Below are positions 17,116-45,510 of a stretch of 64,000 bases of DNA, in pieces. Position numbers and translations under genes: made by a program. The notes under the pieces are model-generated. The model was not told the DNA's origin and did no database searches. It saw nothing but the letters and a program-made list of their open reading frames with translations. Origin of the DNA: Escherichia phage C6; sequence record MW679410.1, one strand, 5' to 3'. How positions within the stretch are numbered: the first letter of the stretch is position 1; each line of letters begins with the position of its first letter.

Positions 17116-17152
17116 TATATTCTCCATTTCACTCAGTAGATTTGATAGGTCC

Positions 17153-17181
17153 ATAATAACATGCTCTACGAGGTTGTAAAC
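17153..17181 (-). promoter_or_regulatory. T4 early-type promoter
   Basis: Minus strand GTTTAC, 17-nt spacer, TATTAT. Confidence 0.55.
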
Positions 17182-17187
17182 TACTTT

Positions 17188-17195
17188 TATAAATA
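17188..17195 (+). promoter_or_regulatory. T4 late promoter TATAAATA
   Basis: Exact TATAAATA about 23 nt upstream of the ATG at 17218. Confidence 0.65.
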
Positions 17196-17217
17196 TTTTA
17201 TTTAAAGGAGAAGGTTT

Positions 17218-17973
17218 ATGATTATATCAGCAAAAACCATCGATGAATTGAACGAGAAGGTCCAGTTAGCATTAGACGATAACTGGCATCTTTTTGGTTC
17301 AACGGTAGTCCTTCCTAATACTGTAACTGATAACAGCGAACGATTCTTTCAAACGATGTCAAAATCAGTTACCCAGATTCCAGGACCTCCTGGACAAAAA
17401 GGTGATAAAGGTGACCCCGGAAATCCTGGCGACCCGGGAGTTCAAGGTGAACCAGGAAAGTCTTCATACCAATTATGGATTGATGAAGGTAATAGTGGAA
17501 CAGTAGATGATTTTTTGACTGCAATAGCAGGAAAGAGAAGAAAATCAGAAGTGTTTTGGAGTGGTATAAACGTTCTATTAACTAATGGTGCGACTTCAAA
17601 CATAATTAGTATTTTAAAGGGGATTCCGCCGACAGCAGGGACTCTATCTCCGTTTTTTAGAACTGCTGATGATAAGATGTGGCCATATAACCAAGACAGA
17701 AGCCTAATGTTTAAACTCAACCTTATTGGTAATTTTACAGGAGTCTCGCAAGCTCGAAGTATAACATTAAATTTCGTTGGAACCAACGGAAACACCTATA
17801 CACAGAACCGTCCAGAAAATGCTACAGATATTTTGTCTTTTACGACGTTCTTTAGCATTGATAAAGATGGGGCAATGGCAACCAATGGTACAGCTATAAC
17901 TGTTACGCCAAATGGCGGCAACTTTACAATAACCTCTGCATTGTTAGTAGCTGAACAAACAGTGACTTCATAA
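17218..17973 (+). CDS. Collagen-like repeat protein, fibre-like, late-expressed
   Basis: 251 aa; strong SD AAAGGAGAA; nine G-X-Y triplets (GPPGQKGDKGDPGNPGDPGVQGEPGKS) followed by SSYQLWIDEGNSGTVDDFL; opposite strand to all neighbours. Confidence 0.7.
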   Translation: MIISAKTIDELNEKVQLALDDNWHLFGSTVVLPNTVTDNSERFFQTMSKSVTQIPGPPGQKGDKGDPGNPGDPGVQGEPGKSSYQLWIDEGNSGTVDDFLTAIAGKRRKSEVFWSGINVLLTNGATSNIISILKGIPPTAGTLSPFFRTADDKMWPYNQDRSLMFKLNLIGNFTGVSQARSITLNFVGTNGNTYTQNRPENATDILSFTTFFSIDKDGAMATNGTAITVTPNGGNFTITSALLVAEQTVTS

Positions 17974-17975
17974 AC

Positions 17976-18000
17976 AAAAAAAGGGCCATATGGCCCTTAG
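17976..18000. terminator. Palindromic hairpin terminator (strong on minus strand)
   Basis: GGGCCATATGGCCC perfect palindrome; minus strand followed by TTTTTTT, plus strand preceded by AAAAAAA. Confidence 0.6.
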
Positions 18001-18236
18001 ATTGCACTCCAAAAATTATGGAATCTTATAGTATTGATAGCCCAGTTAACAAACCTGCGAGTTTGTTTGGGAGTTGGTTTACATACATATTTGACATTGA
18101 CTCGGCGTCCGGTTTCTTTACAGACGGCTTCAAGATACCAACGTCGAGTTTTATGAGGTCTTCCATACGATAGAAAGACGTTAATTTCTTCTTTAGCGGT
18201 AATAAGCGTTGTGGTTGTCAAGGTACACCTCTTCAA
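17997..18236 (-). CDS. Hypothetical basic protein (doubtful)
   Basis: 79 aa; overlaps 3' end of upstream ORF by 44 nt; only one Met. Confidence 0.3.
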   Translation of the reverse strand: MKRCTLTTTTLITAKEEINVFLSYGRPHKTRRWYLEAVCKETGRRVNVKYVCKPTPKQTRRFVNWAINTIRFHNFWSAI

Positions 18237-19203
18237 CGAACTTGTCCCAGAACTTCATATCTACCTTATCAGGCATACCATTCTTAGCGGCCCAGATAGC
18301 ATTAGTTTCGACTTCATCAACGATAGCTTCAAGTTCGGCCTGTACATCTTTAAAAGCATGAAGCCCTTGTTTGATTTCAAGGATAAACGGTGCTGTACGT
18401 AAAGGATATTGGAGGTCGCCTGTTTGATAGATTTCCTTCAACTGATAACCAGCACGATAAGCGTGGCTCAGAGCTTTCCAGTCAATACCTTCATTAGCTT
18501 CAGCTTTACGAGCACGTTCACCGTATTCCGCATCGAGCTTATTCAGAGATTGCTTGAGCTCGATTAATGACAGAGTGGTTTGGTATTTACGTCCGAGAAC
18601 AGTATAGAACGTTTGAGGTCCGGTTTTCTCATGGTTATGGAATACCCATTCACAGAACTCATTTTCAGGGAGTCGATGTTTGATATCTTCTACCTTAGTG
18701 CGACGTTGCTTAGTCGAACCGTCTTCTTGATAATCGACCCACTGTTCAGGAATCTGGTTAACAATAGCCAGTACACCACGCAGAGCAGCCAGTCGAGAAC
18801 CCTTAACGCCATATTTAGAAGCTTGCTTACGGACGTACCCTAAATAGGCTTTCATGTTGGTTGTATAGAACAGAGAACGGTTGCCTTGGATAAATTTCCA
18901 TACATCAGGTAAATCAGATTTAACCACCATTTCAGGTGGAGTGTGAATCATATCCAGAGCAACGGTTTCGCCTTCAGCCGCTAGTTTAAAGAAATATTTC
19001 AGACTGTAAAGCTCGTGGTCAACATCATCTTTAGTGTTTTTGGAAGCGGTGTTATTCGTATTCAGGTTGGTATGGTTCATAGCCGTACCTAACAGAATAT
19101 CACGCGGATGTGGAACAAAGATTTCTTTAAAATCGACATCAGATTCCGGAGTACTTGTTCCGTAAAGATGGCTACCGAAGTAGCCTTTCATAACTGTTCT
19201 CAT
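18193..19203 (-). CDS. Pol-beta superfamily nucleotidyltransferase
   Basis: 336 aa; N-terminal GS-x9-13-DxD motif (GSHLYGTSTPESDVDF). Confidence 0.55.
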   Translation of the reverse strand: MRTVMKGYFGSHLYGTSTPESDVDFKEIFVPHPRDILLGTAMNHTNLNTNNTASKNTKDDVDHELYSLKYFFKLAAEGETVALDMIHTPPEMVVKSDLPDVWKFIQGNRSLFYTTNMKAYLGYVRKQASKYGVKGSRLAALRGVLAIVNQIPEQWVDYQEDGSTKQRRTKVEDIKHRLPENEFCEWVFHNHEKTGPQTFYTVLGRKYQTTLSLIELKQSLNKLDAEYGERARKAEANEGIDWKALSHAYRAGYQLKEIYQTGDLQYPLRTAPFILEIKQGLHAFKDVQAELEAIVDEVETNAIWAAKNGMPDKVDMKFWDKFVEEVYLDNHNAYYR

Positions 19204-37356: not shown

Positions 37357-37974
37357 TTATTTACGGGTCTTTTCGAACTGAGCGGCGTCACCAGCAAGGC
37401 GGCGTGCTTGACGAAGTTTGTTGTCGATTTCTTCGTGCATAGGCTGGGTATACTTAAGGCCTTCAACCGTCAGATAGAGACGATAAAGGTCTGGGGTATC
37501 CAGGTTGTTAATGTGCTGTCCGTTACGAAGAGCATTGAACTCTCGAACGAGTTGTTTAGTTTCAGATTCGATTTCCGAAACCAAAGAAGCCAGTTGATTA
37601 TATTTTTTAACTATAGTGCTGGTGTCAAACTTGATTTTAGGTTTAGGAGCTTCTTTTACCGGTTCGGCTTTAGGCGTTGGTTTCGGCGCTGCAACTTTGG
37701 TCTGGGCCACAGGTTTAGCAACAGGAGCTTTAGCTGGTTTAGCAGGCTTAGTAGCGCCGCCAGCTACGATATCTTTAAAAGCTTTGGAAGCTTTGTAATA
37801 TTCTTTCTGGTTACTAGTATCAAAACCATACATATCATAAACGTTTTTAAAGAACTCAGTACTAGTTTTAGCCCCAGAAATTTTATCATAAGCGGCTTGC
37901 CACATATCTTTAGTCATGCGCACGCCGGCTTCAGTCAGAATGTTTTCGTTCAAAAATTCATTGTAAGTTTTCAT
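37357..37974 (-). CDS. CTS-bearing internal-protein-like protein with Pro/Ala/Lys-rich linker
   Basis: 205 aa; N-terminus MKTYNEFLNEN; low-complexity KPAKPAKAPVAKPVAQTKVAAPKPTPKAEPVKEAPKPK segment. Confidence 0.6.
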   Translation of the reverse strand: MKTYNEFLNENILTEAGVRMTKDMWQAAYDKISGAKTSTEFFKNVYDMYGFDTSNQKEYYKASKAFKDIVAGGATKPAKPAKAPVAKPVAQTKVAAPKPTPKAEPVKEAPKPKIKFDTSTIVKKYNQLASLVSEIESETKQLVREFNALRNGQHINNLDTPDLYRLYLTVEGLKYTQPMHEEIDNKLRQARRLAGDAAQFEKTRK

Positions 37975-38007
37975 TATTGTTTCCTGTGTTAATTAACTTA
38001 TCTATTT

Positions 38008-38040
38008 ATACAAAAAAGGCCCAACCTTTCGGAAGGGCCT
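38008..38040 (-). terminator. Rho-independent terminator ending the tRNA transcript
   Basis: Minus strand AAAGGCCC-loop-GGGCCTTTTTTG. Confidence 0.55.
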
Positions 38041-44872: not shown

Positions 44873-44880
44873 TATAAATA
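44873..44880 (+). promoter_or_regulatory. T4 late promoter TATAAATA for gene 53
   Basis: Exact TATAAATA 28 nt upstream of ATG 44908. Confidence 0.7.
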
Positions 44881-44887
44881 TTAATAT

Positions 44888-44895
44888 TATTTATA
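44888..44895 (-). promoter_or_regulatory. T4 late promoter TATAAATA for genes 4-2-3 (divergent)
   Basis: Plus-strand TATTTATA, i.e. TATAAATA on minus, upstream of gene 4 start at 44861. Confidence 0.6.
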
Positions 44896-44907: not shown

Positions 44908-45510
44908 ATGCTCTTCTCATTTTTCGATCCTATCGATTACGAATCAAAAACAGTCAAGCCGGATTCGGGCTCATTAACAAATGCCGATGTACTGAGCGTG
45001 CCGATGACTGATATATTTAGAAATTATAAAGAATATTTTGATAAAGTGGCTAAAAATTATACACTAAAGACTTATTATATCAACGGGGCTCCTCGTCCAG
45101 AAGAATTGGCCAATCAACTTTATGGCAACGTCCAATTATATTGGGTTTTATTGATGTGCAATAATATATATGACCCCTATTACGGCTGGATTACAGGTCA
45201 AGAAGTTGCATATCAAGCGGCAATCCAAAGATATTCTACTGCAGGTGGTAATCAAGTTCTTTATCACGTTAATGAAAAGGGTGAGAAATTCTGGAATCTT
45301 GTTAATACTCCAGAAAACCCGTATACTTGGTATGATAAAGGCGATACAGAAAAACGTTATCCTCAATATGAGGGCCCTTTGGCCGCAGTAGATATTTACG
45401 AGGATGCTATTCGTAAAAATGAATATAAGCGCGAAATAAAGATTGTAGACCCTAATGATATTGAGTCCTTTATTTCTGCCCTTATTCGCGAAATGGAGAA
45501 AGCCCTCTAA
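44908..45510 (+). CDS. 53: Baseplate wedge protein gp53
   Basis: 200 aa; position before gene 5; late promoter. Confidence 0.85.
   Translation: MLFSFFDPIDYESKTVKPDSGSLTNADVLSVPMTDIFRNYKEYFDKVAKNYTLKTYYINGAPRPEELANQLYGNVQLYWVLLMCNNIYDPYYGWITGQEVAYQAAIQRYSTAGGNQVLYHVNEKGEKFWNLVNTPENPYTWYDKGDTEKRYPQYEGPLAAVDIYEDAIRKNEYKREIKIVDPNDIESFISALIREMEKAL

Follow-up and report, generated by a model that had tools for sequence, protein, structure and literature searches.

A lone late-type gene in the early region of Escherichia phage C6 encodes a collagen-stalked knob protein, a candidate accessory head fibre of T4-like phages

Escherichia phage C6 is a T4-like Dhakavirus, of which a stretch of 64,000 nucleotides (sequence record MW679410.1, hereafter the window) was analysed around a single gene located on the plus strand at positions 17218-17973, in a region 95.6% identical to that of Escherichia phage MN04. 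The product of this gene is already present in GenBank (100% identity to a hypothetical protein of Escherichia phage C6) and combines a divergent DUF1737 domain, a collagen-like stalk, a short neck and a knob related to the tip of the tail needle of phage Sf6. It is very probable that the gene encodes a late-expressed, trimeric, collagen-stalked knob protein, and association of this protein with the virion is somewhat favoured; for the complete reading, in which the protein would be an accessory late trimeric fibre anchored by DUF1737 on the phage head, the probability is estimated at about 0.5. The elements involved are the following.

17218..17973, plus strand: fibre-protein gene, 251 amino acids plus stop codon, with the domain order DUF1737-collagen-neck-knob
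17188..17195, plus strand: T4-type late promoter TATAAATA, exact, 22 nucleotides upstream of the ATG and at the left edge of the inserted segment
17204..17210, plus strand: Shine-Dalgarno sequence AAAGGAG, 7 nucleotides before the ATG, read from the sequence
17218..17373, plus strand: divergent DUF1737 (PF08410) domain, residues 1-52, strand-helix-strand-strand, the proposed capsid anchor
17383..17463, plus strand: collagen-like stalk, residues 56-82, nine uninterrupted G-X-Y triplets, then SSYQLWIDEGNSGTVDDFL
17464..17523, plus strand: neck motif SSYQLWIDEGNSGTVDDFLT, residues 83-102, with two short predicted helices (H83-89 and H96-104)
17524..17970, plus strand: Sf6-type knob, PF16532 (Phage_tail_NK), residues 103-251, a TNF/C1q-like jelly roll

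The C-terminal part of the protein had been described in the initial annotation as an anonymous domain rich in Asn, Thr and Gly, but it belongs to a known family. Residues 103-247 match PF16532 (114.1 bits against a cut-off of 27, E 7e-33), as do all 24 of the 24 aligned relatives, and the knob also matches phrog_1030 (E 4e-65) and is 40% identical to the proteins of the crystal structures 3RWN (E 9e-32) and 4K6B (E about 1e-31). Structure prediction, which had been proposed as a check on this domain, returned an Sf6/TNF-like knob: the AlphaFold2 monomer model shows a predicted local distance difference test score (pLDDT) of 85-97 in this region, and Foldseek aligns it to 3RWN/4K6B with an E value of 1e-16, a template modelling (TM) score of 0.88-0.90 and a root-mean-square deviation of 2.1-2.3 Å. 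The next fold matches are TNF/C1q-like trimers, namely ExsFA/BxpB, C1q-like proteins, PRD1 P5, EDA, collagen X NC1 and the lectins BC2L-C and PLTL. In the knobs of Sf6 and HS1 four residues contact a buried L-glutamate (Leavitt et al., 2013, PMC3741392). Sf6 E146, K200, S248 and D250 correspond to E111, K166, S213 and D215 of the C6 protein, and among 24 relatives three of these positions do not vary and the fourth keeps its residue in at least 90%. Judging from this homology and from the collagen repeat, the knob would form homotrimers.

The only characterized relatives of the knob are the tail-needle tips of P22-like phages and the RefSeq/PHROG label of its relatives is "tail needle knob", which favours a tail-associated fibre or tail-tip knob, placed on the baseplate or tail tip and acting in adsorption or as a trigger of DNA delivery like Sf6 gp9. 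The homology to Sf6 gp9, however, is limited to the knob (residues 103-247); the N-terminal tail-channel plug and the coiled-coil shaft were absent in Pfam and PDB comparisons, and residues 1-102 contain instead DUF1737, collagen and neck. Although TNF-like knobs cap the central spike of the staphylococcal phage phi812 (9eul) and the collagen plus SxYxxW motif matches many PHROG tail-fibre families weakly, the C6 gene sits in the early nrdC region of a T4-like myovirus and not in a P22-like tail module, and in Carvaje the corresponding gene is found between terL and portal, also outside the tail module. The tail of T4-like phages terminates in gp5/gp5.4 and is not known to bear a needle. In addition, the gene is missing from near-identical phages including IME08, indicating that no essential tail site depends on the fibre protein. 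A position on the tail is thus considered very unlikely, and the RefSeq label is probably misleading about location.

The case for the head comes from the N-terminal domain. In a reciprocal search of 1.8 billion representative proteins, a profile built from the N-termini of the family picks up proteins that consist of DUF1737 alone. When these N-termini are compared by hhalign with a set of DUF1737 proteins to which phi24B NanS-p contributes its N-terminus, the probability is 99.4% (E 1e-21), and the relative P0040 scores 26.2 bits for Pfam DUF1737. The topology predicted by AlphaFold2 is E2-5, H8-20, E23-32, E42-49 (pLDDT about 72), and in a fold search of BFVD the best matches outside the family were DUF1737 proteins (TMq 0.72-0.87). 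Against the PDB, the domain found only spurious GCN4-type matches by sequence and nothing below E 0.29 by fold, while the N-terminus alone had no match in PHROGs and no further DUF1737 gene was found within the window.

The function proposed for this domain derives from gp84 of the Stx phage phi24B, for which cryo-electron microscopy located a DUF1737 hexamer at the central pore of the major-capsid-protein hexamers, the domain consisting of one helix and three antiparallel strands with a loop residue described as a "tooth" (bioRxiv 10.64898/2026.04.10.717836). The residues Tyr42, Gly54 and SISSP given for gp84 in this preprint agree with the translated phi24B gene. These data suggest that DUF1737 is a capsid anchor bearing a distal payload. 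In the siphophage Carvaje, a DUF1737, neck and knob gene translationally coupled to terL fills the slot between terL and portal, immediately behind terL; in a relative of this phage (terL 88% identical) the same slot contains two tandem DUF1737 domains and an unrelated repeat protein. A protein of a Carvaje-like metagenomic phage (P0039, L014 8001-9563; 520 amino acids), encoded in the slot behind terL that the knob gene takes in Carvaje, carries DUF1737 twice in tandem along with about seven repeats of the IxWR type and a C-terminal domain that could not be assigned.

The nine triplets of the stalk are perfect, rich in Pro, Lys, Asp and Glu, and followed by SSYQLWIDEGNSGTVDDFL, as had been described initially; if triple-helical, they would span about 8 nm. 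The collagen repeat PF01391 scores 22.8 bits here against a cut-off of 27.2, and homologues reach E 8e-18. The number of G-X-Y triplets per protein ranges from 0 to 40 across the knob family and from 0 to 22 among the proteins with a DUF1737 N-terminus: none in RB43 and Carvaje, 8-9 in Dhakavirus and Gaprivervirus, 15 in fHe-Yen9-01 and 22 in a metagenomic DUF1737-bearing relative. Motifs like the neck match PHROG tail-fibre families and the staphylococcal phage fibre 6v8i. The variable length of the stalk and the exchange of payloads in the Carvaje slot fit an anchor-plus-payload design, and the architecture as a whole (an anchor homologous to DUF1737, a stalk of collagen type and a knob of Sf6/TNF type) argues for the structural or decoration protein that the initial annotation had suspected.

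This architecture also bears on another explanation, according to which the protein would be a late, non-virion trimeric factor of lectin type that is soluble, released at lysis, and might coat debris or neighbouring cells or mask receptors. TNF-like trimers do include the secreted bacterial lectins BC2L-C and PLTL, and the gene is dispensable and resembles a moron. Moreover, cleavage after release removes most of phi24B gp84 from the capsid (bioRxiv 10.64898/2026.04.10.717836). Nevertheless, the N-terminal domain is homologous to a capsid-bound one and neither a signal peptide nor a lipobox is present in the N-terminal sequence of the fibre protein; an anchor, stalk and head with a stalk of variable length are typical of fibres displayed on particles, and the coupling to terL places the Carvaje-like gene among morphogenesis genes. 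A soluble factor is therefore regarded as unlikely.

In C1q-type proteins the knob nucleates the trimer and the collagen helix. In the head-fibre reading, the C6 knob would likewise nucleate trimerisation and the nine-triplet helix, while the three DUF1737 domains (residues 1-52) would dock the fibre on the particle, most likely on the major-capsid-protein hexamers of the head. Stalk and helical neck would hold the knob about 8-10 nm out; the trimeric knob may bury L-glutamate at each subunit interface, and its distal surface may bind an external ligand, that is, a glycan or protein of a host or environmental surface. T4 Hoc and SPP1 gp12 are established decorations of the hexon centre, gp12 being a collagen-like trimer that occupies a site of quasi-six-fold symmetry (PMC7602432).

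Transcription would occur late, driven by the gene's own TATAAATA, in the orientation of the late genes although inside the early hyperplastic region. An open reading frame (ORF) survey, ignoring ORFs that merely overlap minus-strand ones, identified 17218-17973 as the sole plus-strand gene of at least 110 amino acids between about 8.3 and 44.9 kb; minus-strand coding otherwise fills the window from about 8 kb to 44.9 kb, and the plus-strand late baseplate and neck genes start at 44908. Thus, the isolated position among minus-strand early genes claimed in the initial annotation was confirmed, as were the exact T4 late promoter and the strong Shine-Dalgarno sequence. On the other hand, a late gene on the opposite strand is not the oddity it was taken for but a normal T4 arrangement, the endolysin and rI genes of the window having their own TATAAATA.

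In the window TATAAATA occurs 8 times against 7.6 expected by shuffling, which is chance level, and significance based on the count was consequently dropped; the case rests on position and comparison. Seven of the eight copies are followed, 21-28 nucleotides further on, by a start codon of their own strand: all four plus-strand copies precede the fibre gene, gp53, gp9 and gp13 by 21-27 nucleotides, and three minus-strand copies precede the endolysin gene, gp4 and the phrog_2280 gene by 22-28 nucleotides. The eighth, on the minus strand, is located 89 nucleotides before the rI-like gene. The comparative evidence is stronger: the exact TATAAATA is found before homologues in four otherwise unrelated intergenic contexts, namely Dhakavirus (including AnYang and MN04), Tegunavirus fHe-Yen9-01, Kanagawavirus PEi20 and a metagenomic T4-like contig (L013), and the homologue in RB43 has CATAAATA upstream in place of the exact motif. 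The recurrence of the motif in these four contexts supports the late expression that had been predicted.

Two observations on other copies of the motif can be added. The phrog_2280 protein (205 amino acids, 37357-37974, minus strand) has an exact TATAAATA at 38003-38010, 28 nucleotides upstream of its start, and its gene is a candidate for an uncharacterised late gene within the early region. At 44873-44895 two exact copies of TATAAATA lie on opposite strands, 8 nucleotides apart, between the divergent genes gp4 (head completion) and gp53 (baseplate wedge), and this motif pair has the appearance of a compact divergent late-promoter pair.

Full-length homologues of the fibre protein occur in 42 phage records, down to 37-47% identity, and their hosts comprise Dhakavirus, Gaprivervirus, Tegunavirus, Kanagawavirus, Pseudotevenvirus and one metagenomic T4-like contig, as well as a siphovirus. 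In every T4-like context listed, the gene stands alone near nrdC.11, on the strand opposite to the early genes around it. In the C6 lineage its presence is sporadic: the flanks match 414 records and the DNA of the fibre gene only 15. In IME08 a 43-bp stem-loop segment replaces positions ~17189-18199 of the window. These findings support the initial view of the gene as an acquired cassette. No foreign base composition was detected in the gene, with a guanine-plus-cytosine content of 0.39-0.40 that equals that of its flanks.

A sporadic distribution in a hyperplastic region with turnover of ORFan genes (PMC4122927) would also be expected of a functionless hitch-hiker on a recombination-prone cassette. 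Yet five or more T4-like genera and a siphovirus carry intact, full-length homologues at the divergence mentioned above, their alignment contains fourteen invariant columns with ligand-contact residues among them, and promoter, Shine-Dalgarno sequence and terminator are conserved, a stem-loop following the stop codon in 8 of the 8 homologues inspected. The ratio of nonsynonymous to synonymous substitution (dN/dS) against homologues is 0.1-0.3, with synonymous sites saturated in the distant pairs. The fibre gene is under purifying selection, and the lack of any function is extremely improbable.

Two alleles have recombined to give that of C6, with a crossover near codons 80-110. Compared with AnYang, the 5' part (promoters, DUF1737 and collagen, to about 17400) is 100% identical and the knob part 64-71%; compared with the Gaprivervirus RZ group, whose proteins show 84% amino acid identity to the C6 fibre protein, the 5' part is 60-75% identical and the knob part 88-97%, from ~17500 through the terminator and the small ORF behind it. 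Recombination would be the means by which the gene is gained, lost and re-assorted.

Several points weigh against the reading of the protein as a late head fibre. The copies of the Gaprivervirus RZ group lack a canonical TATAAATA upstream, the nearest sequence being ACTAAATA (phage RZ, L005 2884-3000). The stalk region has a pLDDT below 50 in the AlphaFold2 monomer model, which for this reason provides no trimer geometry. The C6 protein itself scores 13.8 bits for Pfam DUF1737 against a threshold of 24, a sub-threshold match that was judged to be real because profile search, hhalign, topology and BFVD fold agree. The loop bearing the aromatic tooth of gp84 (Tyr42) aligns less well than any other part of the domain and is not confidently aligned; an aromatic residue is present in this loop in the proteins of fHe-Yen9-01, PEi20 and RB43 and absent in those of C6 and RZ. 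Furthermore, the precedent for a DUF1737 capsid anchor is one preprint on a podovirus with a different capsid protein. In T4 the centre of the hexamer is taken by Hoc (PMC7602432), and AnYang, a Dhakavirus with the knob gene, has an intact Hoc-like protein as well. The symmetries of stalk and anchor do not match either: with three chains per stalk and six-fold symmetry in the DUF1737 ring, two fibres per hexon or partial occupancy would be required. In the literature searched, no transcript, virion-proteome or functional study of any full-length homologue was found. A mass-spectrometry match of a knob-only Kuttervirus protein was not used as proof because the sample also contained non-structural proteins.

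Mutual exclusion with hoc was considered and rejected, since RB43 has only hoc fragments but AnYang possesses both genes. In RB43, hoc (L011 15353-15856) is annotated only as two short ORFs of 61 and 47 amino acids, "Hoc-like head decoration", and phages of this type have the DUF1737-knob protein in its stalk-less form.

The surroundings of the fibre gene contain the following additional elements.

17153..17180, minus strand: early sigma-70-type promoter GTTTACA-16-TGtTATTAT (TTTACA, 16 nucleotides, TATTAT; 10 of 12 matches, TG present), driving nrdC.10
17981..17998, either strand: hairpin AAGGGCC-ATAT-GGCCCTT, perfect 7-bp stem with a 4-nucleotide loop
17997-18236, minus strand: small basic ORF, DUF7279/phrog_8921 (E 3e-37), 74 amino acids from an internal TTG at 18221
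18193-19203, minus strand: nrdC.11, RlaP-type nucleotidyltransferase

The hairpin is perfect, as had been stated, and a stretch of 56 nucleotides that includes it has a folding energy of -13.4 kcal/mol (z = -2.6). A T-run follows it on the minus strand only, so that it would be a canonical intrinsic terminator for the nrdC.11 transcript, in agreement with the proposed termination of the minus-strand operon; for the plus-strand gene it amounts to a 3' hairpin without a U-tract. No known RNA families were found around the fibre gene. The minus-strand early promoter is likewise present, as part of an element older than the insertion: IME08 has the same early promoter directly after its stem-loop segment and no fibre gene, which implies that the promoter was not brought in with the gene and that the "insulation" largely pre-existed.

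Composite terminator/early-promoter elements termed PeSL have been described as recombination sites in the hyperplastic regions of T4-like phages (Arbiol 2010; Comeau 2014; PMC4122927). In AnYang the knob gene is accompanied by a different stem-loop and the DUF7279 ORF is missing, whereas E33 has the DUF7279 ORF together with another small gene and a duplicated promoter segment, and no knob gene. The comparison of IME08, AnYang and E33 indicates that the knob gene sits antisense between the two halves of a PeSL-like element. At the E33 junction (L004 3184-3530 and 4762-5190) a different gene of 84 amino acids lies behind the second copy of the early-promoter segment, and the additional segment is 90% identical to window positions 17140-17188; E33 also has a homing endonuclease adjoining nrdC.11, and its junction illustrates cassette turnover of the PeSL type.

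The fibre gene is flanked by nrdC.10 and nrdC.11, both on the minus strand. The DUF7279 ORF overlaps the 3' end of nrdC.11, has its stop codon within the terminator hairpin and probably starts at the internal TTG at 18221. In C6, MN04 and the RZ group it lies in the inserted segment together with the knob gene; E33 has the ORF but no knob gene, and AnYang and IME08 lack the ORF, which probably represents an independent cassette of this hot spot. A conserved downstream partner gene was also considered and rejected: the small ORFs following the knob gene show no homology between C6, PEi20 and RB43, and DUF7279 is found without the knob gene as well. The product of nrdC.10 is an AAA-like NTPase. 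The start of its longest ORF, at 17154, is upstream of the -10 element of its own early promoter; translation most likely begins at Met14 (17115), which has GGAG in front of it, in agreement with the start of the PHROG profile and the annotations of MN04, E33 and PEi20 (981 nucleotides), and the annotated start in IME08 looks over-extended.

The knob domain, the GenBank entry of the protein and the presence of the knob family in T4-like phages, noted in 2013 (PMC3741392), are already known. In the literature searched, no description was found of the DUF1737-collagen-knob architecture, of the placement as a late singleton, of the mosaicism or of the implication of a head protein. If the protein is a head-displayed fibre, it would represent an unrecognised swappable decoration system in T4-like phages alongside Hoc and Soc, with consequences for the adhesion of phages to hosts, mucus and surfaces, and would supply a natural display anchor of about 50 residues for phage engineering, as well as correct a label, "tail needle knob", that now misplaces dozens of myovirus proteins on the particle. 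If it is not in the virion, it would be one more accessory late gene of unknown role and of less interest.

More tentatively, DUF1737 could be a portable anchor by which unrelated podo-, sipho- and T4-like phages hang swappable payloads on HK97-fold hexamers, so that some T4-like phages would carry a second, C1q-like class of head fibre. This class might exist besides or instead of Hoc, with the knob shuffled between genera like a receptor-binding domain, and phages of the RB43 type, in which hoc is fragmented, might use a stalk-less version.

Among the known systems, the knob of the Sf6 gp9/HS1 tail needle (3RWN, 4K6B) is similar in that the C-terminal 145 residues are ~40% identical, the predicted fold is the same and the four glutamate contacts are kept. 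It differs in bearing a plug and a coiled-coil shaft where the C6 protein has DUF1737 and collagen, and the latter belongs to a T4-like myovirus and is accessory, not essential. The phi24B gp84 protein (NanS-p esterase) shares a homologous N-terminus of ~50 residues with the same topology and the arrangement of a small anchor with a larger distal module, but its payload is an esterase instead of a collagen-stalked knob and its capsid is that of a T=9 podovirus, as opposed to a T4-like gp23 capsid. SPP1 gp12 and T4 Hoc are comparable on paper, being dispensable, late, elongated, displayed from capsid hexamers and thought to be adhesive (PMC7602432). No sequence relationship to either was found, however, and Hoc is an Ig-like monomer while gp12 has no globular head. 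With PeSL cassettes the locus shares the insertion in a terminator/early-promoter element, the alternative genes among phages and, in E33, the duplicated promoter segment; the cassettes described carry early genes in early orientation, whereas here a gene with a late promoter lies antisense between stem-loop and promoter. PRD1 P5 contains a collagen motif. Although P5 is located at the vertices of a virus with an internal membrane and double-jelly-roll capsid proteins and the likeness of P5 and the C1q/TNF proteins to the C6 protein is at fold level only, with 9-14% identity, these proteins present an N-terminal anchor, a Gly-X-Y stalk and a TNF-like knob in the same order as the fibre protein of C6.

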